The translations under genes were made by a program, and so were the position numbers. The notes under the pieces are model-generated. The model ran no database searches. It saw only the letters and a program-made list of their open reading frames with translations, and was not told where the DNA came from. DNA of 56,242 nt, filler included, from Sphacelaria rigidula (lineage: Eukaryota): the NCBI GenBank assembly GCA_964200075.2. It is 7 parts of 7 records of this genome, joined end to end, with 100 filler letters (N's around TTAATTAATTAA, not from the genome) between each part and the next. Parts side by side here need not be neighbours in the genome. Positions count along the whole stretch, not along the records: positions 1 to 7,950 come from CAXNAA020012877.1; 6 more parts are not named here. One strand, written 5' to 3'. How positions within the stretch are numbered: the stretch's first letter is position 1; the number at the start of each line of letters is the position of its first letter. Of this stretch, positions 1,165 to 22,225 are shown piece after piece.

Positions 1165-3839
1165 TAGACGGATCGCGCATTTATGGGGGCAATCTGCGGC
1201 CAAGCATTGAGATCAATAAACGTTTTGAAAACATCCGATACTGTCTCATAACTTCTGTACTCTATTTTAGCGATATTACACGCAACACGTTGCCTAGTGT
1301 CAACAGTGCCATTGTTTAAATTCTCTTGTTCCCCTCTTTTTTCAAACGTTCATCTCTACCACTCTTGAACAATCAGGACGCCCAAAACTTAAATGAGGAA
1401 CTATGACTGTTCGGTGTTGCATGCAGCCCCCTCATGCTTTAGCCTGTGCCATGCTATGCCATACGATGCCATACCGGCGAACGCTCGGAAAATGTGCTCA
1501 TACGTTCTTCCTCAAAACTGACTGAGATCAATTTCTGTCCGGCCGTGTTTGATCGTTGTTGAATCCATGAAGAATGTCAACTCATTGAAAACGGGCGTGT
1601 GGTTCGGTCCTATCGGTAGATAGGTTTACACCGTGTCAATTCTTGCAGTGGGAATCACACCACGGTGTAGTCAAAATCAACTGTGACAAGTCCGATCCGC
1701 TGCACTGATGTCAGGAGCTGCACTTTGCCAGTATAGTGCAGGGTGTCAGCATAAGGCGGTCATGCCGGGCCTGTCATCCTCCGTACTCTGCTGGGACCCC
1801 CACGTGATATGCATCCCGTTCGCGGGATGGCTGTCAGCATACGTTGGGATGCCTGAAATGTTTGCAAAAAGAGGTGTACAGGTATCTCTTCACACCCTGC
1901 GCAGCTCAGCTCATCCACGGTACGCAACTTTTCACAACGCCGCGGAACCTTGTCGGGGTGGTGTACCGGGCGATATCTGTACACGTGTGAAAGGTGCAGA
2001 CACGGGATTCGCCACCTTGCACCAAACATTACCATTGTTTGTGGCTCCATGGCCAGCAAAGCATACACGCGCCAACGTGACATGAAACCCCATCAAGCAC
2101 GATGTATGTCGCGGCGAATATGTAGGCTCACCAATGCGGCTCATGAACACCAGCGACATCCACGACACAGCACAGCAGCTGATCCGTACCATTCCGATGA
2201 ATGTCGGGGGCCTTTCCACATGCAACCTGTCGTGAACCCCACCTGATATTATGACCAGAAATTGTGTGTTTGTAGTGCATGCACTCACAGATATGATGTT
2301 GCGGCAAGCAAATAGTTCCTTCCGGCGCTGCCGTGCTGCTGCTCAAACCTCTTGAGACTCAAACCGCCAACGCAGGACCATGATCCGATACTGCCTCTCG
2401 GAGTTGCTGTCTCCCCTAAAGGTGCTGTTCTAATTGCACGGCGTTCGATGACGAGGTTTGGGACGCTCTTGCTATCTTTCGCAACGAAGAACGCTAGCAG
2501 GCAGATGAAAGAAAGCTGGCCGGGACCATGACCTTCGTACCCCGGCGGGCATCTGCTGAACCGATTCCCGTTGGTATCAATCCATGCGCCGTATCTCTAT
2601 GGTGATTCTCGGCATCGCCTTTTTCTACGGTGCCATGTAGACTGAGTGTTCATCGGAGCGATGGCAACACATGTGGTTGCCGTCATGCTGTCGACGTCAG
2701 ACCCACTCTCTAGTTTTTTTTCCAGTTCTGGCCTCCGCCACGGCGGTCTGCCTTTCAATAATCTGAAAGGAACCACAATTATGGGACGAGGGGGCGCAGT
2801 CGTTGGTACAACTCGAACATTGCCGGAACTTCCACAGAGGCCGTAATATGATGCAAGTTGCACGATATCTCCTGCGTGGGTAGGTCCTCGCTCGATGGTT
2901 TCTACTTCATCTTTTTGATCAAAACCGCATAGCACATCGTTGCTGGTGTCATTTATATGTCGCTTTCTATGCAAACCCTATTTTCTGTCGTCATGGTCCT
3001 CATGAAGTCTGCAACAAAGATGGGCAGCCGAGTCTATGTACACGCTTTCACAGCCACCGCAATGACACCTGCAGAACATGAAAAACATGCCCGCTACCGA
3101 GGTATCCTATCCAACAGGTGGACATCGTGGAGACCCCTCCCCAGCCATGTGGCAGGTGCAATTTTGCTAGCGCTGTTGAGCATGAAAGTTGATGCCCCCA
3201 CCACCGTGCGCGCATGTCTATGTTATGTCAGATCATGAGTACACCTACCACACGCGCCCGTTCAGCTGTGTACCAACGCATATTTCTCGTATGATGCTGC
3301 ATGGCGACCCTTGACTCTGTTGATGGTGTTACTTGGTTCATCATTCTTGCACAATGATATCTATCTGACTCGTCCTGTGTGACCTGCAAGTCCTGAGTTT
3401 TATTTTTATTTGTGTTGGAACATATCAATGTGTTAGGTCCCTTTGATACGATTGGGCATCCTTCGATATTGGCGGCTTTCTACACATGCTTCGTCGTCAC
3501 CGTCATCATTTGATTGCGCTATACCAGTGCTGTATCCGCTTCCAATCCCTACTGCACTGATGTAGAAGACGTGCCATCCAGTGAAATCATCTTGCGAGTG
3601 GCGCTGCAGTTGTTGGGATCAGCTCACATGGAGCGTCATCTGTTCAATGCAGACAATTTGTCCCCAAAGTATGTGTAGCGATGACAATGTCGTTCGTTCT
3701 TTGAGGCATTTCAACACCCCGTCGTTCACAGCTCACGGGGTTTTATCCGCCGTTTTGGTGTTTGTGCTACCATGAGCAGTGAGATTTGTAAGGGGTGCCG
3801 CTGAAGGAACTAACGGCCATCGCGGGAGAGAGGTTCATC

Positions 3840-3921
3840 AACGAGGGCTGCTCCAAGCCAATTCCTACGGTCTACAGGGCGGAAGGACGGAGCTATTCTG
3901 CTCCAAGCACGCCAGAGGGGA
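3840..3921 (+). pseudogene. Frameshifted extra EsV-1-7 repeat upstream of the main ORF
   Basis: NEGCSK (frame of 3840), SYGLQGGRTELFCSKHAR (frame of 3863) and MVDV (frame of 3922) make one repeat unit split over three frames by two 1-bp deletions. Confidence 0.7.
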
Positions 3922-6114
3922 ATGGTGGATGTGGTGAAACAGATATGCAGCCACGAGGGTTGCTCCACGTTGCCGTCGTATGGTGTAGCGGAAAGCACGA
4001 AGGCGGAGTTTTGTTCCAAGCATGCCAGGGCGGGGATGGTGAATGTGGTTCACAAGAAGTGTGGCCACCAGGGCTGCTCCACGCTTGCGTCGTATGGTGT
4101 GGCGGGAAGCACGAAGGCGGAGTTTTGTTACAAGCATGCTAGAGTGGAGATGGTGAATGTGAGGACCAAGAAGTGTGGCCACCAGGGCTGCTCCACGTCG
4201 CCGTCGTATAGTGTGGCGGGAAGCACGAAGGCGGAGTTTTGTTACAAGCATTCCAAGGCGGGGATGGTGAACGTGGTAAGCAAGCAGTGTGGCTTCGAGG
4301 ACTGCTTCAGACAGCCGTCCTTTGGTTTAGCGGGAACCAAAAAGGCGGAATTTTGTTCCAAGCATGCTAGGGCAGGGATGGTGAATGTGAAGGACAAGAC
4401 GTGCAGCGACGAGAGTTGCTCCACGCTTCCGTCGTTTGGTGCAGCGGGAAGCAGAAAATCGGAGTTTTGCTCCAAGCATGCTAGACCGGGGATGGTGAAC
4501 GTAAAGGACAAGAGATGCGCCTACAAGGGCTGCTCCACGCTGCCGTCGTATGGTGTAGAGGGAAGCGGGAAGGCGGAGTTCTGTTTCAAGCATGCCAGGG
4601 CGGGAATGGTGAATGTGGTGAGTAAGAGGTGCCGCGATGACGGCTGCTCCACATTGCCGTCCTTTGGTGTAGCGGGGAGCACGAAGGCGGAGTTTTGTTC
4701 CAAGCATGCCAGGGCGGGGATGGTGAACGTGAAGGACAAGAAGTGCGGCTACGAGGGCTGCTCAACGGTGCCGTTCTTCGGTGTAGTCGGAAGCACGAAG
4801 GCGGAGTTTTGTTCCAAGCATGCCAGGACGGGAATGGTAGATGTGGTTCACAAGAAGTGTGGCCATCAGGGCTGCTCCACGCGGCCGTGGTTTGGTGTGG
4901 CGGGAAGCACGAAGGCGGAGTTTTGTTCCAAGCATGCCAGGGCGGGGATGGTGAATGTGGTTCACAAGAAGTGCAGCTTCAAGCGGTGCTCCACGTCGCC
5001 GTCGTATGGTGTGGCGGGAAGCACGAAGGCCGAATTTTGCTCGAGGCATGCAAGGGCGGGGATGGTCAATGTGATGCCCAAGAAGTGTGGTCACCAGGGC
5101 TGCTCCGCGCACGCGTCGCATGGTGTGGCAGGAAGCAAGAACGCGGAGTTTTGTTCCAAGCATGCCAGCGCGGATATGGTGAATGTGACGACCAAGAAGT
5201 GCAGCTACGAGGGCTGCTCCACGTCGCCGTCGTATGGTGTGGCGGGAAGCACGAAGGCCGAATTTTGCTGTAGGCATGCAAGGTCGGGGATGGTTAATGT
5301 GGTACACAAGAAGTGTGGTCACCAGGGCTGCTCCGCGCACGCGTCGTATAGTGTGGCGGGAAGCACGAAGACGAAGTTTTGTTCCAAGCATGCTAGCGCG
5401 GGAGCGGTTAGTCTAGTGCATAACAGGGGCAGGAAAAATGAGTGCTCCAAATCAACACCCGACAAAACGCACAACGTTGATGAAGCAACGTTTTACAGTC
5501 ATCATTGCGGTACACATAGCATAGCTGCGGTGTCCGACACCACAAAGCTCATCACTGGGGAGGGCTCCATCGCTCGTAGCCCGACGGAGGGAGATGGAGG
5601 AAGCGTGGCTGATGTGCAGGGGGAAAAGCGCAAGCGCACAGCAGTGTCGGGTTCTGTTACAAACTCCGTTGTAGGTACTCGCCGCAATATGTGCCCCGAT
5701 TCCACACAGGGTGAAATAGCACCGTTGCTCTCGGGAGATCCAAGTTTGCTCTCGAGATACCCACCTGTCCTCTCGGGGCACTCACCTTCGATAGCTGGTG
5801 GTGAAGTGCTTTTGGGAGCAAGAGCAGGAGCAGGAATGAAGGTGGAGCTGGCAGTCCCTTCTCCTGAACGTGATGGCGATGGGGTAAGGGAGTGTCGCGA
5901 GCAGGCTGCCTCACTCAGTGGTGGGAGCAGAAAACGTGGTGGTGGTGACTGCACCAGCAGCGGTAGTGGGAAGTCACGGCGGCTTTGTGGTTCGCCGGTT
6001 GTGACACCAGGTCACCAGAGTACATCTGATGATATAGCTTTTGAAGAGGCAGGGGAGGATTCGAACTTGAAGTTAGAGCTAGGTCCCTCTCTTGGGACGT
6101 CCGACACATGGTAA
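3922..6114 (+). CDS. EsV-1-7 cysteine-rich repeat protein (730 aa, intronless; 13 intact 38-aa repeats plus one degenerate, low-complexity C-terminal tail)
   Basis: Tandem 114-bp units encoding MVNVxxKxCxxxGCSTxPSYGVAGSTKAEFCSKHARAG = C-X4-C-X16-C-X2-H-X12, the EsV-1-7 motif family of brown algae/phaeoviruses; the true start may lie further upstream. Confidence 0.9.
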   Translation: MVDVVKQICSHEGCSTLPSYGVAESTKAEFCSKHARAGMVNVVHKKCGHQGCSTLASYGVAGSTKAEFCYKHARVEMVNVRTKKCGHQGCSTSPSYSVAGSTKAEFCYKHSKAGMVNVVSKQCGFEDCFRQPSFGLAGTKKAEFCSKHARAGMVNVKDKTCSDESCSTLPSFGAAGSRKSEFCSKHARPGMVNVKDKRCAYKGCSTLPSYGVEGSGKAEFCFKHARAGMVNVVSKRCRDDGCSTLPSFGVAGSTKAEFCSKHARAGMVNVKDKKCGYEGCSTVPFFGVVGSTKAEFCSKHARTGMVDVVHKKCGHQGCSTRPWFGVAGSTKAEFCSKHARAGMVNVVHKKCSFKRCSTSPSYGVAGSTKAEFCSRHARAGMVNVMPKKCGHQGCSAHASHGVAGSKNAEFCSKHASADMVNVTTKKCSYEGCSTSPSYGVAGSTKAEFCCRHARSGMVNVVHKKCGHQGCSAHASYSVAGSTKTKFCSKHASAGAVSLVHNRGRKNECSKSTPDKTHNVDEATFYSHHCGTHSIAAVSDTTKLITGEGSIARSPTEGDGGSVADVQGEKRKRTAVSGSVTNSVVGTRRNMCPDSTQGEIAPLLSGDPSLLSRYPPVLSGHSPSIAGGEVLLGARAGAGMKVELAVPSPERDGDGVRECREQAASLSGGSRKRGGGDCTSSGSGKSRRLCGSPVVTPGHQSTSDDIAFEEAGEDSNLKLELGPSLGTSDTW

Positions 6115-6966
6115 ACGACATCCCCTCTCGTACCCATCTCGTTGCTGCTCATACTACCCGGGGATTGTGTCGGTGCGTGGTCGCGTATGTTGTCGAGGGC
6201 CCCAAACGATAGTCCGTCGGCACGGCGTTTCTCTCGCATTGTGTGAAGTAGTTCGTGAAGTCCACGGGGTCCTGACGTAACAGGTGATTTGCCAGATGGA
6301 GTAGCGTTTGATTGGGATTGAGAACCCTCAGAGTGAAAAATCCTCATCAATCGATCGACTGGTGTAGTTGGGGAGTACTTGCCCGAGCCAGGTGAAGAGC
6401 GGGTCAAATGGAAGCTCTTGCCATGGTCGGATGAAGTTGATGTGTTCTTATATCGCACTGGTGTCGTCAACCAGCAGAAAACTATAACCGCAGATTTCCA
6501 GAAATGGTCGATCCATTCCTGAAATCGTTCCAGTTCTGAAATGGCCGTCAAATTCTCGAACGCTTCCTCGGTTGCTTTCCACTGAAGCCTCTAATATCCC
6601 CTGGTAGGATCTCGTCATGGTGCCGTGAGGACACATCATTACAGCCAAAACTCACGCACACACACTCATGAAAAGTTCGACAAATACAAGCGGATAATAC
6701 AAGCCATTTAATCGAGGTTAGTCTCCCCATCTGCGAAACATCTGTCTTCTTGTCTCAGCGCCACGCCCCACTAGATTCTCGTCGAGATTATATTGCTATG
6801 CTTACGTTAATCGTGTGCTGTAGTGGCAAGTTGCCAAGGCTGGCCGAACGTGGATGTACCGTGGTCGGCCATCCGATGAACTGACACTCTACTGTTTGAC
6901 TTGTTATTTGTATTTGTTCCCAACTTTTTCCGACCTATGCAATACCTACGATGAAACTTGTCCAGT

Positions 6967-7404
6967 TTAAAAAAAACACGGGATCTTCCAAATGGGGCAT
7001 GGATCATTTATTGGGGATGAGAGCCCGGAGGATTAAAATCTTCGTATCGGCACCAAATATTCGAAACACGGTTCCACTTCTTCACCTACTGATAGCTATT
7101 GACAACTGCTACACGCCACATAAGTTTGGATTTCGATCACCGAAATGTTGGGGTCCTATGTGAAGAAACAGTTTTGTGGAATTCCGGGTGTCCAAGCGGA
7201 CGCCAAAATGGTTCCGAAATAGTTTTCTTTACCTAGGACCCCAAAATTTCGGTGATCGAAATCCCAATACCCATGGCGTGTAGTAGTTGTCAATAGCTAT
7301 CAGTAGGTGAAGAAATGGAACCATGTTTCGAATATTTGGTGCCGATACGAAGATTGTAATCCTCCGGGTTTCTCATCCCCAATTTGTAAGATCCCGTTTT
7401 AAAA
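6967..7404. repeat. Long fold-back inverted repeat (MITE-like / hairpin)
   Basis: Arms ~7011-7170 and ~7222-7382 are near-complementary (e.g. AATCTTCGTATCGGCACCAAATATTCGAAAC vs GTTTCGAATATTTGGTGCCGATACGAAGATT); pairing extends to GGGATCTTCCAAAT / ATTTGTAAGATCCC. Confidence 0.85.
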
Positions 7405-7950
7405 GCATTTGAATCCGAACAACAGCACACGCGTCGTATTTCATTATTAAAACTCGATGAAGCGTTTTTTGACCCAGGATGGTGAAACCGGACAGTACTT
7501 CGGGCTTTGGGCTGTGTTTTAAGACAGACATGTTTTATTTTCAGAATCCGGCGTCACAAGGCATATCCCTTGCTTGAACCAATCATCGATGATGTGACAA
7601 CCGCCCGTTCGTAACGGAAGAGCCTAGCTTGACCCGTGACATCAGCACCGAGATCGGAACAGTGAGATCTTTCACAAACCCCGGTATCACAAGAGACCAA
7701 CGCGTTGTGAGGTATAAGTCCAGCCATTATGTCGATGCGGAGAGACTCGAGAACCATTTCCGGGGAGAAAGGGGCGTGGTCGTTGTCGCGACCGTGAACG
7801 GCAAATGAGCGGAGAAAGAGCCAAATGTACGCGCCATGGTTGGAGTTGGCGCGTAGACTCTCTGGTACAGTGTAGAGAGCGATGGCCTAGCAGAGGTACG
7901 TTCTCGGCCGATCGGTGGCCCAGATGAGGTACGATTGAAAAATAATTTCT

Positions 7951-8050
7951 NNNNNNNNNNNNNNNNNNNNNNNNNNNNNNNNNNNNNNNNNNNNTTAATT
8001 AATTAANNNNNNNNNNNNNNNNNNNNNNNNNNNNNNNNNNNNNNNNNNNN
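7951..8050. other. Artificial contig-joining linker
   Basis: N44-TTAATTAATTAA-N44, stop codons in all six frames; identical linker repeated six times. Confidence 0.98.
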
Positions 8051-8130
8051 CTGATGCGCCCACATATACCGAAAGGTGTAGACTGGCGCCCAGAATAAAT
8101 GGGACGACAACACACACAACACACGTAGTC
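8051..8130 (+). mobile_element. 3' end of tRNA-derived SINE copy (contig start)
   Basis: CTGATGCGCCCACATATACCGAAAGGTGTAGACTGGCG...GATGGGA/AATGGGA...ACAACACAC matches 30054-30135 and the reverse complement of 29130-29200. Confidence 0.7.
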
Positions 8131-8359
8131 AATCAATGATGAGAGCGGAGGTGAAATATTTTCCCTGTACATATGCTCTGGTGAGTCGTTGCTCTTTTTC
8201 ACTTTGATTGTATTTCATTTTATTCGTTTTTACTCATTTTTTAATCAAAAAAGTGTCTGCAAGGAATCAATAATCTTTTCACATTTACCTACGTGTGTAC
8301 TTTCTGTTCTCTTTTTAACCTATTTTACTTCCAAAGTCAGTCCAGGAAATCACCTTTTC

Positions 8360-8595
8360 ACGTCTACTTATTCACGTCCTTACTCTTTTACGTACTTGCT
8401 TACGGCCTTCCCGCCTTGCTTCCCTACTTACTTACTCACTTACCTACGTACACTCACTTTACTTTACTCACGTACTTACTTGCTCACTTACCTACGAATT
8501 AACTGCCTCACTTACTCACTTACTCATTCACTCGCTGACTTACCTACTTACCTACTTATCTCCCTGCCTACTCGCCTACTCACTCACTTACGACT
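8360..8595. repeat. Degenerate low-complexity repeat of ACTT/ACTC/ACCT tetramers
   Basis: Runs such as TACTTACTTACTCACTTACCTAC; source of the spurious Leu/Thr/Tyr-rich ORF 8189..8668. Confidence 0.8.
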
Positions 8596-10645: not shown

Positions 10646-10915
<270 letters not shown>

Positions 10916-11793
10916 TGATGATTTTTTTGCTGAACGTGCATGTGGTGGACGGCCAGAGTCGAGGAGGCGGGGGGGAGGGGAGTGTCCATTAATGATTCAT
11001 GGCTGATTGGTGGGTTCGTTCGCTGGTGAAGGTTGTCGCGATGAACCATGAGTCGCTACGGGTCTACCGCGGGGACAAGGTGAACGTGCAAATACCCTAA
11101 GGTGAGCGAGTAGACGGAACAGAAGCAGTTGCCATGCACCTCAAAGGAGTCACGAAGGAAAAATCGAGCAACCGAGAAAACACACAAACACGTACACAAA
11201 GGCAGGGACATTGATATACTGTACTGACATCATTGCGAGGCAAAGAGCCCGTAGCGGTCCCGAGCTCTCCGCCGCCCCCCCAGCCCCCCTCGACACGCGC
11301 CACCCTGCCAAGACTTGAAGCAAGAAGGCCTTACAAGAACTTAATATGCTACTGTATCGCCGCCATTCCAACCTCGCCCTTGCAACTAGTCCAGGAATAG
11401 CCGGCCAGCGCGAGGAAAACGTTGTGGGTTTGAGTTTTTCGACGAATGACGTTGTGTCTGCTTTTGTTGTAGCAGACATTTGGTTGCCGTCATTGCAAAC
11501 CGTGAGGAAGTTTGCGTTGAATACAAGATTTTACGGATTAGTGGGCGCGATAAGGAAGTGCTGTAGGGGGTATCCAATCAACCGCCGCGCCGTGGTGGTC
11601 TTCACTGAAGCCATTATTATTAGGTACTACAGTACTGCCCCAAGTATAGTCATTTGATAAACCGAGACGACGGCCGGATACCTTATCGCGAGTACGAAAC
11701 CCCCAGCATTTGTGCGCGGAATTTTTCCATACACTTTCCCGTAGGTTATAGCTTAAGTTGTCGACGCTTTCCCAAAGGTTTCAAATCACCTGA

Positions 11794-12123
<330 letters not shown>

Positions 12124-12168
12124 TGACGGCCTCGTTCTTGCCCTTCTGGACTGCAATACTACAACATA

Positions 12169-15100
12169 CAGTCTTGCGCCAATATATATATATATATATA
12201 TATACAAGGATCGGACGGGGTCGCCGACGAAAGGCGTGGAAAGGAATGAATTTAAATTGGGATATGGTAAAGGTAATGACTCCTACCAAGAGGCTGAGCC
12301 AGAGATTTGATGTGTGTATCGGTTATGAAACTGTGTTACATATGATGAGTAGAAGAAGGAAGGTATGACATGGGTATGGGATGATTGGGATTAAGGAACG
12401 CGAACGTTGAGAGCGCGGAATGATGGGTGAAACGCACTGAATTTCGTGTCATGGTTCAAAAGTGTGAAAAACGCGGAAGACCCGAATGTGTCACAGATAA
12501 TGCGTTCTGATCATAAACAGAGCTGAAACATGAAGAAAAGAATGGATCCATTCTCCAAAAGTAGAAGTTTGCTCGTGAGTTGATATTTAGCTTACGAAAG
12601 AGCAAGATCTCTACGTACAACTGTTGGTTGAAATTCGCTCCAACATTTACCTATACAACATCCGACAGTCGGGGTTCCCGTTGTTAACGATCGCGCGCGG
12701 CTTGATAGAGCCCCGAAACTCGGAGTACTGGCTGGCTGGCTGGGCTTGCGTTTGTTGGGGGAAAGTTTGGAAAGCTGGGACAGAGAAACAGGAGCAACAG
12801 TCTTCATGGTCTCTACAGTGGTGAAAAGGTTGAAAAATGGAAGCACACGCTCACGCGACGCGTATTGCTTGACCCGTTCGTTCGCGCATTTTCTTTTTAC
12901 CCTTTCAAACGGAACACTGTGACGAAAATAATACGTTGGAACAACGGAAGACGAAAAATGTGTACGTGTTCCAAAATTTACGCAAGCCAGAGACAGCCTG
13001 GCGGAGAGAGACCTAAAAAACATGCCGTGCCGAAATTCACCGAACCTTGCAAATAACTTGAGAGGTCCGGTGTATTCAACAGCCAATTTGCCGCGGTTCG
13101 GTGAAGATTGAAGCCGAGTTTTGTCGTCTCTGTCTTGGCCGTCTATTTTTTGGTAAATTGCGGGCTATCCCAAAGTTCTTTGCAATGTTCGGTGAATTTC
13201 GGAACGGCATGTTGTTTTGGTCTCTTTCCACCAGGCTGTCTCTGGCTTGCGTAAATTTTAGAACACGTATACATTTTTCGTTGTTGTTTCATCGACCTTT
13301 CTATGTTCCTTAGATTCGATTTCCCGGAGTTCTGGGTTCGGTGAATTCAACAGCCGAGTTGCCGCGGTTCGGTGAATTTTGGAGCCGAATTTTATTGTCT
13401 CTCTTCTGGTCGTCTATTTTTTGGTAAATCGCAGTCTACCCGAACCCCAGGAAATCGAATCCAAGGAACACAGAAAGGTCGATGAAACAACAACGAAAAA
13501 TGTATACGTGTTCTAAAATTTACGCAAGCCAGAGACAGCCTGGCGGAAAGAGACCAAAACAACATGCCGTTCCGAAATTCACCGAACATTGCAAAGAACT
13601 TTGGGATAGCCCGCAATTTACCAAAAAATAGACGGCCAGGACAGCGACGACAAAACTCGGCTCCAATCTTCACCGAACCGCGGCAAATCGGCTGTTGAAT
13701 ACCCCGAACCTCGAACCCCAGGAAATCGAATCTAAGGAACACAGAACGACCGACGAACAAAGCGCCCTGCGGAAGGCTGCAAACTGGCAACAACAACCAC
13801 AGCGTCTATGATTGTTGTTGATTGAAACCATACTGATATTACGCACGCATGTGTCGCGCTTACCCGAGTCAGACGCCTGTATGGTGCCAGGAAATATAGT
13901 CATGTTACCATCTGAACGTCATGTGTTGCACATATCCGAAAAAGGTTGCGATTGCCAAATAATAAACAATCCAGAAAGAGTGAACTAACAATAAAACTGC
14001 GAATGGAAGATTCACCCAACTCCGAGAAATCGAAGCATTTGCTTTGTTATTGTTGTTTACGCTTTCACTGATGGATTGGACGCCTACGCTGTAAGGAAAA
14101 CTAATCGCGTTAACGCTTCAGCGTGAGTGTGTTGCACATATGCAACCATATATGGTCCAAAGAAAACTCCAGCCTGTAGGAAACATCAACGCTTTTCTTG
14201 CGTTTTGGCCGTGTATGCATGTAAGATTGAAGTGTCCGTTTTTCAGAATCAAAACGTCAGGACCACCAGTCTGATTTACCAACAAATAGACGGCAAGGAC
14301 AGAGACAATGAAATTCGACTCCAAAATTCACCGAATCCCGAACCTCGAATCTTTACGTGCATATTAGGTCCATATTTAGGCACTGACAGCTTGGGTCAAC
14401 GTGGAATCTTGCGCTCGTCTGAGTTGAACGGTGATGGAAAGTCATTGCACTACCTGATCAACCTTACGGTATTATGTCTTTTGCGCAATACAGCCACAAA
14501 TAGATATACAGAGACATGGTCGTAAGAAAACTCTAGCCCAAAGGAAACAGAGACGCTCTTCTTGCGTCCTGATGTCTCCTCTGCTCATCCTATATACGTT
14601 TTTCAGAATCAAAGTGTCAGATCCACCATCAGGGCTCCGCGTATTGCCTATTACGCGGCTACTTNNNNNNNNNNCTCGCCCTCGTCGAACGTGAACGGTG
14701 ATGGGAAAACGTTGCACTGTCTCATCAAGCTTTCGAAAATGAAAAATGCCCCGGGGTGACGTGGAGCTGAAGGAGTTTGTGAAGTGTACTGTTTTGAGAG
14801 TAGGTCTAATCGTCCCGCTTGCACCGAGCGTTCACAAGTAATCTTAGTTTGGACATATATATATATATATATAATCGGAACAAAATCTGTCCTCTCTTCA
14901 CCCCGTTGCGCACTGCTGCAACGCGCAACCCCAGATTCAACGACATGGGCTTATCGACGGGTGCTTTACTTGACGTGTAGCCGAAGTTGCAGCGCGATAC
15001 AGTGCCGACAACGCGCATACGACCGTGCCTCCCGGACTGAGCACCCCTACAGGCGATATGTTAATGATTTTTGTACATATTGTCATAACCCAGTGGGTCA

Positions 15101-20428: not shown

Positions 20429-21185
20429 CTACGGCATTACGAGGAGAAGGGGATCAGGTGGTTCAGAGGCGTTAACGCCGTGAAAACATGGACATCAAGG
20501 TCGCTATTCGTCGCGGGAGGGGTGGGGGGGGCAGGGAAGGGGATACAGGAACAGGATATCACATCAAATCACCTCGACCGGTTGTTGCGGCGTAGGATGG
20601 AGATTGAGCAGCCCGGGGAGGAAGCAAACACAAAACGGGCGTTGCATTCAAGCCTTCGAATGAGTACGGGTTACGTGACTAGTTTCGACACAGAACAGGT
20701 AAAACCGCTGCTGCTGCTGCTGCTGCTGCGAATGCCGACAAAGATCAAATCTACACCAAATCGGCTCTACCGCATCGTAGCGCGCGGGCGCGTGCACCGT
20801 GTTCGACAGGGTGGGCTCTGACGAGAGAGGATTTTTTCATCATGGATTTGCTCGCATTTACTTTGCCACTTCTGGGGTTCGGCTTCGCCTTGTTTTATGA
20901 TGGAAGGGATGCAGTCGTCAGCAGCAAGAGCGACTACGAACGTCGACAGAACAGCAACAACGACCCAGACTTACGCTTACATGTTGTGTACTACACCCCC
21001 ACACAGCCACCGTGACTGGCCCTTTCCCCTTTTCAAAGTTGAGTAAAGCCGTGCTCGACAACTTCATGTGGGCTCTCTGTCCGGCGTATGTACAAAACTT
21101 CGAGTTACCGTTATTCGGCACAGCCAATTGGGAAAATAAACAACGAAAGAAAAAAAAATCAAATCACTTTTGCGATGATACACAC

Positions 21186-21336
21186 CTGTAGTGCAACTCC
21201 TGATGGTCTCAGTTCGACCCCTGTGGAATGACCTCGTCGCGCAGCTCTCGTACGTGGGAGCCATCTGCCCGTGTAACCGGCGGAAGGCCAGCTGGATCGC
21301 CATCTGCACCATTGCGTCAGGGCTCACTTTCCACTC
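21186..21336 (-). CDS. Carnitine O-acyltransferase (CPT2-like), exon 3 of 5 seen
   Basis: EWKVSPDAMVQMAIQLAFRRLHGQMAPTYESCATRSFHRGRTETIRSCTT contains the SPD..Q.A.QLA, TYES and GRTETIR family signatures; AG/GT boundaries. Confidence 0.93.
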
Positions 21337-22225
21337 CTGCCCGTCCGACCGTTGCATTGTTTTTTGTTGTTTTTGTTGTTGTTGCCAATGACGAACATGA
21401 GCACAGACGGACACATACATACACACACACACACACACAGCGAGGGAAGCGAAGCAGTAGATATAAACAAACTCGACAGGACAACGTGCGATGGGCACAC
21501 AGAAATACCGACATCCGAAATGGAAAACCTCAACCTCTCCTCGTCGAGTACACGTATTTTACGCTAAAGTCAGCCAGAATTTGAGTTTTCACGGGTGTTT
21601 GGCGGCTCATACGCCACAATCGTCCCTCAACCATTACTCGACGTTCCATGTCTGGGCCACTCATGAGTGCACCAAGATCATGTCGCCTACGCCTTTCACG
21701 GCAGTCGTTATGCGGATCGATCCCCGCACACACCCCAATCTTCACTCAAACCTTGACTCGAAATTCCACGCTCGGCCTTTACTAGCGTCTACATCACCAT
21801 CTTATACTTCGAACTATTCCGTATTCCGCCGCGCTTACGTGTTCAGAATGGTACGCCATCAACCGCTAAGGGCGGCAAGCTGCGGGCTCGAGCCCCGACA
21901 CATACAGCCTTTGGAACCATAATCTGGTTGCAGAGGTTGAAAAGCGTGAGGGATGTGAGTGGAAGAAAAAGAAAAAAAAAACGATGAAGCGTCGACAGGG
22001 TGCGGTAGTGCCGATCCGATCCTCGGCGAAAAATAAATGTCAAACACGTACCGGGGCAGAGATGAGCTAATCGATCGTTGGAAAACTGCGGTCTCGTGCC
22101 GAGGGCTGAGGGGGGTTTTGGCGTACAAAAAATTGGATGTAAAAGAAAAAAACGTCGCGCGAACACACACTGTCCACTCACTACCCCCACCTTCCACCAC
22201 CCAACTACCCGATCCCGCCCCGCAC

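Follow-up and report, generated by a model that had tools for sequence, protein, structure and literature searches.

A thirteen-unit EsV-1-7 array gene of Sphacelaria rigidula: a probable nuclear regulator related to giant-virus nuclease genes

Gene and array architecture

The DNA analysed, termed the window below, is a stretch of 56,242 nucleotides from the brown alga Sphacelaria rigidula made up of seven joined genomic parts, and the subject of this report is a gene at 3922-6114 encoding a tandem array of EsV-1-7 zinc repeats followed by a low-complexity tail. The gene was found to be a real, probably expressed member of a known family, within a subfamily carrying a regulator-type tail that has not been described. 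We consider its product to be probably a nuclear DNA-binding regulator with an array derived from viral selfish nucleases. The features of the array and its coding region were as follows.

3922..6114, plus strand: single coding exon, 730 amino acids and stop, array then low-complexity tail (open reading frame, ORF, 3814-6114; start inferred)
3922..5403, plus strand: 13-unit EsV-1-7 array with variable positions 5, 6 and 17 (repeat finding, PF19114, AlphaFold2)
3863..3916, plus strand: out-of-frame relic (unit 0) within the inferred 5' untranslated region (UTR) (repeat hidden Markov model in another frame, i-E 1.9e-4)
5404..5517, plus strand: decayed in-frame unit 14 with C14, F30 and H34 kept and C9 and C31 lost (translation in register)

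The thirteen tandem units, each of 114 bp or 38 amino acids, run through 3922-5403 in one frame without an indel, their number and order resting on the assembly as no contig spans the array. Tandem Repeats Finder returned a period of 114 with 13.2 copies and a score of 1616. Residues M1, V2, V4, C9, C14, F30, C31 and H34 were present in all thirteen units and E29 in twelve, in agreement with a preliminary description of this DNA that had listed 13 exact 38-residue units with invariant C9, C14, C31 and H34 and near-invariant MVxV and EFC. The residues it gave for positions 5-6, 17 and 19 were matched exactly on re-reading; position 17 across units 1-13 reads LLSQLLLVRSHSH, and position 19 is S in eleven units, F in one and W in one. 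The units were also basic as described, with a net charge of +2 to +6 in twelve and of 0 in unit 1. Column entropy was highest at positions 6 (2.41 bits), 17 (2.29), 11 (1.83), 5 (1.82), 12 (1.76) and 8 (1.70).

The Pfam model PF19114 matched 13 stretches of the protein (E 3.4e-198, 641.5 bits, gathering cut-off 25), a match to the EsV-1-7 family far beyond chance that upheld the earlier family assignment and its link to the published developmental regulator IMMEDIATE UPRIGHT (IMM). This family (PF19114, IPR043822) is expanded in brown algae, with 31-335 members per genome (bioRxiv 10.1101/2024.02.19.579948). The unit formula C-x4-C-x16-C-x2-H describes all thirteen units, and the period of 38 was also seen at most junctions across the family. 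Positions 5-8 form a linker between zinc modules, because the Pfam model begins at C9.

AlphaFold2 modelled units 2-12 as small modules almost without helix, with a predicted local distance difference test score (pLDDT) of 82-96, while units 1 and 13 were unmodelled. Sequence searches of the PDB with the window protein gave no meaningful match. A fold search gave a best Z of 2.5 and a second search nothing with E below 1, negatives that do not show a new fold as the query was the whole 13-unit model and no single module was folded alone.

The ORF continues for 236 amino acids beyond the array to a stop at 6112-6114. The sole ATG within 3780-3925 is at 3922, the first after the upstream in-frame stop, and gives the protein of 730 amino acids. 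Both ends of the array are decayed, with a frameshifted relic unit upstream and a unit lacking two cysteines downstream. The window gene encodes no nuclease: a profile built from the nuclease domains of the 69 relatives described below found no match in six frames of the window.

Nuclease fusions in viral relatives

Of 420 homologues found, the best 120 were compared. A C-terminal domain with the pattern PD...E.DE...H was present in 69 of these and absent from 51, and the motif was complete in 68 of the 69. Pfam named no family for this nuclease-like domain in the 18 proteins scanned, and UniProt already labels some of the viral members 'Endonuclease'. The named relatives included Marseillevirus, Faunusvirus, Cedratvirus, Pithovirus, Klosneuvirus and Tetraselmis virus entries. 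One of the proteins with this domain was modelled with AlphaFold2 (pLDDT 91). Of 48,161 chains compared with the model, just two exceeded Z 8, namely Vsr endonuclease (1cw0, Z 9.1, root-mean-square deviation 4.1, 132 residues aligned) and the catalytic domain of the homing endonuclease I-Bth0305I (3r3p, Z 8.4, deviation 3.3, 95 residues aligned). The final Asp of the EDxHD motif is not conserved in the viral domains.

The association was also seen in a metagenome scan with peptides of the window protein, in which no nuclease pattern was used. The nuclease was in frame at 51 of the 64 loci recovered, the contig end cut the gene at seven, and six had no in-frame nuclease, two of them with one in an overlapping frame. 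A second set of 80 viral loci was picked by nuclease patterns and is biased accordingly; 78 of these have both array and nuclease. In one viral subgroup (L310-L314) the first catalytic motif reads ID instead of PD. In L036, L037 and L055 at 8000-8542 the full array-nuclease gene is directly followed by another short gene, which encodes a single repeat and a nuclease domain, and at seven loci (L128, L182, L211, L225, L230, L231 and L233) the same nuclease domain stands without EsV-1-7 repeats directly beside capsid genes. Long fusions to USP, EF-hands, flavin adenine dinucleotide-binding or reverse transcriptase regions were set aside as apparent merged gene models. A protein model of Sanguina aurantia (P0130) joins a region resembling an RNA-dependent RNA polymerase (RdRP) to two EsV-1-7 units near residues 937-970, as either a real fusion or a merged model.

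The viral genes were located beside core genes in neighbourhoods that differ widely. Among the 78 loci, 17 were directly beside the major capsid protein gene and eight beside RPB2, counts that include related, non-independent loci and come from viral contigs, a material biased towards capsid genes; other neighbours included DNA polymerase B, topoisomerase II and a helicase. An array-nuclease gene occupied the 5' flank of the capsid gene at two of 60 close capsid loci with a readable flank, and beside capsids 96% identical to that of a carrier the site was empty or held another gene. In a second capsid family eight of 80 loci were directly adjacent, two of them on contigs found before. Filled and empty alleles were thus seen at a conserved locus, and such patchy presence beside core genes is the behaviour of free-standing homing endonucleases.

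An A-rich tract lay within 60 bases upstream of the capsid start in none of eight carriers (L005, L009-L014 and L136) versus 40 of 45 empty alleles. The tract pattern was tuned by eye and was not repeated in the second capsid family, where only two carriers had a readable start; the difference is a possible target or promoter effect.

A tree of the repeats grouped 43 of 46 nuclease-less arrays with four viral ones. It was built by a quick method from 108 rows and 140 columns, and 62 of its 105 branches were left open.

Variable positions, selection and recombination

Positions 5, 6 and 17 had been described as varying unit by unit, and this was borne out across the family. Within-array diversity peaked at 6, 17 and 5 in 298 nuclease-less units from which the window array was left out, and at 6, 19, 17 and 5 in 359 nuclease-linked units. 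These sites were first chosen from the window array, and the family analysis named the same ones independently. R, Q, H or N occupies position 17 in 50-56% of family modules, and 83-93% of units across the family are basic. The linker words NVS, NKD and DVH recur in both viral and algal arrays, and 541 words at positions 5-6-17-19 were counted among 772 viral modules.

Positions 10-12, which the preliminary description had included among the code positions, behaved differently. Together with 15 and 16 they co-varied with the same position in the next unit, and therefore mark the whole array rather than the unit; positions 5, 6, 17 and 19 were absent from such pairs. Between orthologous viral units (nine groups of related genes) positions 10-12 drift, and change relative to within-array diversity was 0.26 at 5, 6, 17 and 19 versus 0.53 at 10-12, a borderline contrast found in seven of the nine groups. 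Positions 10-12 are not code-like. The ratio of nonsynonymous to synonymous polymorphism (pN/pS) between orthologous viral units was 0.29-0.43 at 5, 6 and 17, indicating purifying selection. Some near-identical viral genes (L019-L022, L049/L071 and L054/L068) differ in unit number, and in L054/L068 positions 5, 6, 17 and 19 change and 10-12 are unchanged.

In the window array approximately 76-84% of codons were under purifying selection, with a nonsynonymous to synonymous rate ratio (omega) of about 0.2. Sites 5, 6 and 17 pooled gave an omega of 2.4 (likelihood-ratio statistic, LRT, 12.7), and omega for the single sites was 2.3-2.5 under F3x4 and 3-5 under equal frequencies. The M2a model gave posteriors of 0.84-0.93 at the same sites for an omega near 2.2, although it did not improve significantly on M1a. 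The suggestion that position 19 is diversified in the window gene was not sustained, with an omega of 0.35-0.53. A tree-free comparison in the window array showed excess amino-acid change, since codon positions 1-2 of sites 5, 6 and 17 differed at 0.63 per site versus 0.25 at seventeen four-fold sites (p 0.0006), an excess that may be inflated by multi-base changes and by codon bias at synonymous sites. Incompatibility among the window units rose with distance (p 0.006), which points to recombination among them. The overall selection pattern resembles that of PRDM9 and is suggestive rather than proven.

The C-terminal tail

The region downstream of the array carries short conserved motifs, as listed.

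5404..6111, plus strand: 236-residue tail rich in Ser and Gly; no Pfam or NCBIfam domain and no nuclease match
5626..5637, plus strand: KRKR, basic motif resembling a nuclear localisation signal (NLS), columns 0.85-0.96 conserved, function inferred from the consensus
5836..5847, plus strand: psi-K-x-E motif 1, MKVE, conservation 0.91 (K) and 0.97 (E) over 32 aligned tails
6067..6078, plus strand: psi-K-x-E motif 2, LKLE, conservation 1.0 (K) and 0.91 (E) over 23 aligned tails

The tail is common to a lineage-restricted subfamily, with 33 matches among representatives at 50% identity. Among its most conserved columns are those of KRKR and those of K and E in the two psi-K-x-E motifs, whose third residue varies; the median column is conserved at 0.58. 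Psi-K-x-E is the acceptor consensus for the small ubiquitin-like modifier (SUMO) and is typical of nuclear regulators. Enrichment was assessed in 45 nuclease-less tails of at least 60 amino acids, 'nuclease-less' being a label by domain content given to many proteins without a source name. The motif occurred in 33 of the 45 versus about four expected from shuffles and ranked top of 400 patterns of the same shape, with an excess of 29 versus 8 for the next. When 43 tails were grouped into 24 independent homology clusters, psi-K-x-E was found in 14 versus 1.8 expected, and basic NLS-like motifs in 17.4 versus 4.1. No such excess was present in the 69 viral nuclease ends (18 versus 16.7 expected).

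An EAR-like reading of LKLEL was rejected, as the residue preceding K is V, M or L in paralogues and the third residue differs among them, with K and E retained. DNA depth over 5680-5903, which holds the first psi-K-x-E motif, was about fourfold higher, so that paralogues keep this stretch at a DNA identity of at least 90%.

Genomic context and transcription

The locus is host nuclear DNA and an integrated giant-virus (phaeovirus) region was ruled out. A gene-dense intronless viral neighbourhood was absent, with no further ORF above 220 amino acids in the window, and among 32 window ORFs scanned the recognisable neighbours were separate exons of a methionyl-tRNA synthetase and a carnitine acyltransferase. 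The closest named homologues of the array protein are other Sphacelaria rigidula proteins, and the tail is common to them also. Features outside the coding region were as follows.

10646-12126, plus strand: methionyl-tRNA synthetase exons in two separate ORFs (PF09334, Pfam)
21064-21558, minus strand: choline/carnitine acyltransferase exon (PF00755, Pfam)
3778..3779, plus strand: probable splice acceptor AG of a 5'-UTR intron, a weak hint from the starts of RNA-like contigs in one study, upstream exon not located
6115..7099, strand not given by the contigs: probable long 3' UTR (1783-base contig)

Read contigs from four of the 11 listed runs were placed on 1200-7900, comprising two DNA-like runs and two guessed to be RNA, both from one study. 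The DNA-like runs covered both flanks evenly at a flat single-copy depth. In the RNA-like runs depth was 115-240 over 3778-7099 versus 0-3 over 1200-3660, and one contig of 1783 bases at 5317-7099 had a depth of 115-118 in both. RNA-like contigs started at 3778 and 3780, and one of them extended past this point by 135 bases that did not align, whereas the DNA contigs run through it; a CAG after a T-rich stretch is present in the 3778-3779 region. The gene is probably expressed, and there is a hint of a transcript with a long 3' UTR and a 5'-UTR intron that ends at the AG of 3778-3779.

Summed contig depth over the array reached approximately 400 times that of the flank, and the organism therefore holds many similar units. 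A transposon carrying the gene was considered and rejected, as none of the 25 longest inverted repeats listed encloses it and the flanking DNA has single-copy depth. The opposite-strand ORF at 6012-6590 gave no NCBIfam match.

Several inverted repeats were noted elsewhere in the window. A fold-back element at 6975-7400 with 145-bp inverted arms overlaps the end of the probable 3' UTR and had a summed DNA depth above 500,000 versus 79 for single copy; it is likely an abundant miniature inverted-repeat transposable element (MITE). The region 12924-13757 contains nested long inverted repeats with 274-bp arms that are 96% complementary, probably a fold-back transposon or hairpin locus, and 615-1167 is MITE-like with 28-bp inverted arms and 497 bp between them.

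Proposed function and alternatives

The proposed regulator would operate as follows. Each unit would fold round one zinc through C9, C14, C31 and H34, in line with the invariant ligands and confidently modelled modules, and the basic array would lie along duplex DNA, where position 17 and the linker positions 5-6 would make most of the base contacts. The KRKR motif would direct nuclear import of the protein, and SUMO attached to the two tail lysines would recruit chromatin or repressor factors. The array would correspond to the module by which giant viruses target a fused Vsr/EDxHD nuclease, encoded in mobile genes of the homing type for which cutting is predicted. In the algal lineage the nuclease would be gone and an effector tail in place, as proposed for plant AP2 from HNH-AP2, and recombination would homogenise the units while positions 5, 6 and 17 stay diverse. 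DNA is favoured as the target because the viral arrays are fused to a Vsr/EDxHD nuclease fold, so the earlier suggestion that the array binds nucleic acid is supported indirectly, and the evidence that the repeat may target DNA in particular is indirect but converging.

A number of observations weigh against this reading. A search for binding or cutting data found none for any family member, and the RAP module of FASTKD4 (9gek), an RNA-acting domain, also has the Vsr fold (Z 6.8). Over the first 207 bases of capsid coding sequence there was no co-conversion signal and no column specific to carriers, and the repeat tree gives no transfer direction. Position 17 in the window array is R, Q or H in only four of the thirteen units and L, V or S in nine, unlike typical base readers, and a predicted template modelling score of 0.48 means that the relative geometry of the modules is not fixed by the model. 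In the window array M2a versus M1a was not significant (LRT 3.48, p 0.18), the single-site tests under F3x4 were marginal (p 0.04, 0.02 and 0.07, uncorrected), and recombination and multi-base changes inflate omega. The bootstrap interval for the 0.26 versus 0.53 contrast in the viral units was -0.49 to 0.00, and positions 8, 15, 16, 27, 32 and 36 showed ratios like those of 5, 6, 17 and 19. The case for expression comes from two runs of a single study that were guessed to be RNA, none of the listed runs being recorded as such.

Four other explanations were weighed. An array recognising proteins, as an immune sensor or scaffold in which the zinc-module surface binds viral or developmental proteins in the manner of LRR, TPR or LIM domains, is unlikely. 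Diversified surface positions would suit any recognition surface, position 17 of the window array is often hydrophobic, small zinc modules often bind proteins, and diversifying LRR and TPR arrays occur in brown algae; the usual fusion partner outside the algae is nevertheless a nuclease, most units are basic across the family, and the tails carry nuclear and SUMO motifs.

A non-specific DNA or chromatin binder, whose basic scaffold grips DNA while the variable positions are tolerant surface sites, is quite unlikely. The non-significant M2a test and the placement of positions 5-6 in a linker are consistent with it, as is the specificity of I-Bth0305I, which lies mostly near the cut site with little from distal positions (PMC3239194). 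At 5, 6 and 17, however, diversity was above the synonymous level rather than equal to it, the same linker words recur in viral and algal arrays, and orthologous viral units keep the residues at these sites under the low pN/pS given above.

An RNA-binding array that reads transcripts or small-RNA precursors, as PPR, OPR and PUF proteins do, is improbable. Basic Cys3His modules, the P0130 green-algal model with its two units and RdRP-like region, and the Vsr fold common to RAP domains would fit such a function. The best fold matches are DNA nucleases, however, the viral genes act like DNA-level mobile elements beside core genes, and the RdRP fusion is a single unverified gene model. The ligand spacing is also unlike that of RNA-binding CCCH fingers of the tristetraprolin type.

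That the array is a coding minisatellite under neutral expansion, or a relic in decay, and has little function is very improbable. Units at both array ends are decayed, many look-alike units are indicated by the array depth and many protein models are short and tail-only, but this reading is largely refuted by the purifying selection on most codons and opposed by the four ligands intact in all thirteen units, the conserved tail motifs and the probable expression.

Returning to the DNA-binding regulator, the analogy with TALE and PPR repeats drawn in the preliminary description did not hold, as the model contains no helical solenoid and the variable positions have large residue alphabets. A TALE-like two-residue code appears unlikely because these alphabets are large. 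That the array is read unit by unit through a decipherable code is doubtful. It is likewise only tentatively proposed that the repeats are a new class of modular DNA reader, in which positions 17 and 19 with linker positions 3, 5 and 6 would set a preference for each unit, viruses would use the arrays to aim nucleases, and brown algae would have domesticated hundreds of them as SUMO-tailed regulators evolving like KRAB zinc-finger and PRDM9 genes. Were this so, it could give the brown-algal lineage sequence-specific silencing of transposons and integrated viruses as well as developmental control. A per-unit preference would make the repeats a new programmable scaffold for DNA binding, and brown algae would then offer a counterpart to the domestication of AP2 and the expansion of KRAB-ZNF genes. 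With the nuclease fusion, the mapped variable positions and the conserved motifs of NLS and SUMO type, what was a possible zinc finger becomes open to concrete tests of nucleic acid, residues and modification, and the viral array-nucleases offer a cleavage readout for decoding the repeats.

Comparison with known systems

The EsV-1-7 family, its expansion, IMM and the zinc-finger transcription-factor hypothesis are in print (10.1101/2024.02.19.579948, 10.64898/2026.04.27.720984, PMC7457493, PMC12993054, 10.1101/2025.04.25.649966, 10.64898/2026.06.18.732790). EsV-1-7 genes form the largest brown-algal orthogroup, which includes IMM, the Ectocarpus members have no other Pfam domain, and a viral origin of the domain has been argued (10.64898/2026.04.27.720984). 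A Mariner transposase with an N-terminal EsV-1-7 domain has been described, as has a brown-algal lineage without cytosine methylation and without H3K9 and H3K27 methylation (PMC12477816). VSR-like homing endonucleases are reported in mirusvirus introns with EsV unmentioned in the available part (PMC12768974). The literature search returned no paper linking EsV-1-7 repeats to a nuclease or to SUMO motifs, and the words nuclease, endonuclease, homing and SUMO are absent from the available main text of 10.1101/2024.02.19.579948 and 10.64898/2026.04.27.720984. No published account was found of the nuclease fusion or of the SUMO-type tail, whereas the idea of a zinc-finger transcription factor has already been published.

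The window gene shares with the EsV-1-7/IMM genes the PF19114 repeat, its place in an expanded host family and the lack of any other Pfam domain. It differs in having 13 near-identical units versus the five of IMM, an N-terminal array, and a tail with KRKR and two psi-K-x-E motifs. IMM has a unique N-terminal domain ahead of its five repeats (10.1101/2024.02.19.579948) and the window coding sequence begins at repeat 1 without such a domain, so that by comparison with the description of IMM the gene does not qualify as its orthologue.

TALE and PPR arrays are similarly built of near-identical tandem units with few variable positions. Those arrays are helical solenoids, however, while the window array is predicted to be almost free of helix, and its variation extends over at least 3-4 positions with many states rather than a small di-residue alphabet.

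The resemblance to EDxHD homing endonucleases concerns the viral relatives only. In the prototype I-Bth0305I, DNA-binding motifs are repeated in the N-terminal part and a Vsr-like domain forms the C-terminal part (PMC3239194), and the viral proteins likewise combine N-terminal repeated modules with a C-terminal domain that has the Vsr-like fold and the acidic and His residues. Their modules are EsV-1-7 zinc repeats and not two NUMOD motifs, however, and the genes are free-standing rather than intronic; the window gene is without the C-terminal Vsr-like domain.

PRDM9 and KRAB-type C2H2 arrays offer a parallel in evolution, being single-exon coding minisatellites with a homogenised scaffold, few fixed diverse positions and a nuclear effector region (PMC2794550). 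The fold and ligand spacing differ, and the window gene has no C2H2, KRAB or SET Pfam match. Contact positions and a code are established for C2H2 fingers and only inferred for EsV-1-7, for which the evidence of selection is also weaker.

The AP2/ERF family, as derived from HNH-AP2 homing endonucleases (cited in PMC5029118), uses an unrelated module whose DNA binding is proven, while that of EsV-1-7 is predicted and the repeat tree carries no direction of transfer. In both cases a DNA-binding module of microbial or viral homing endonucleases, predicted as such for EsV-1-7, would have been reused in an expanded, nuclease-less host family.

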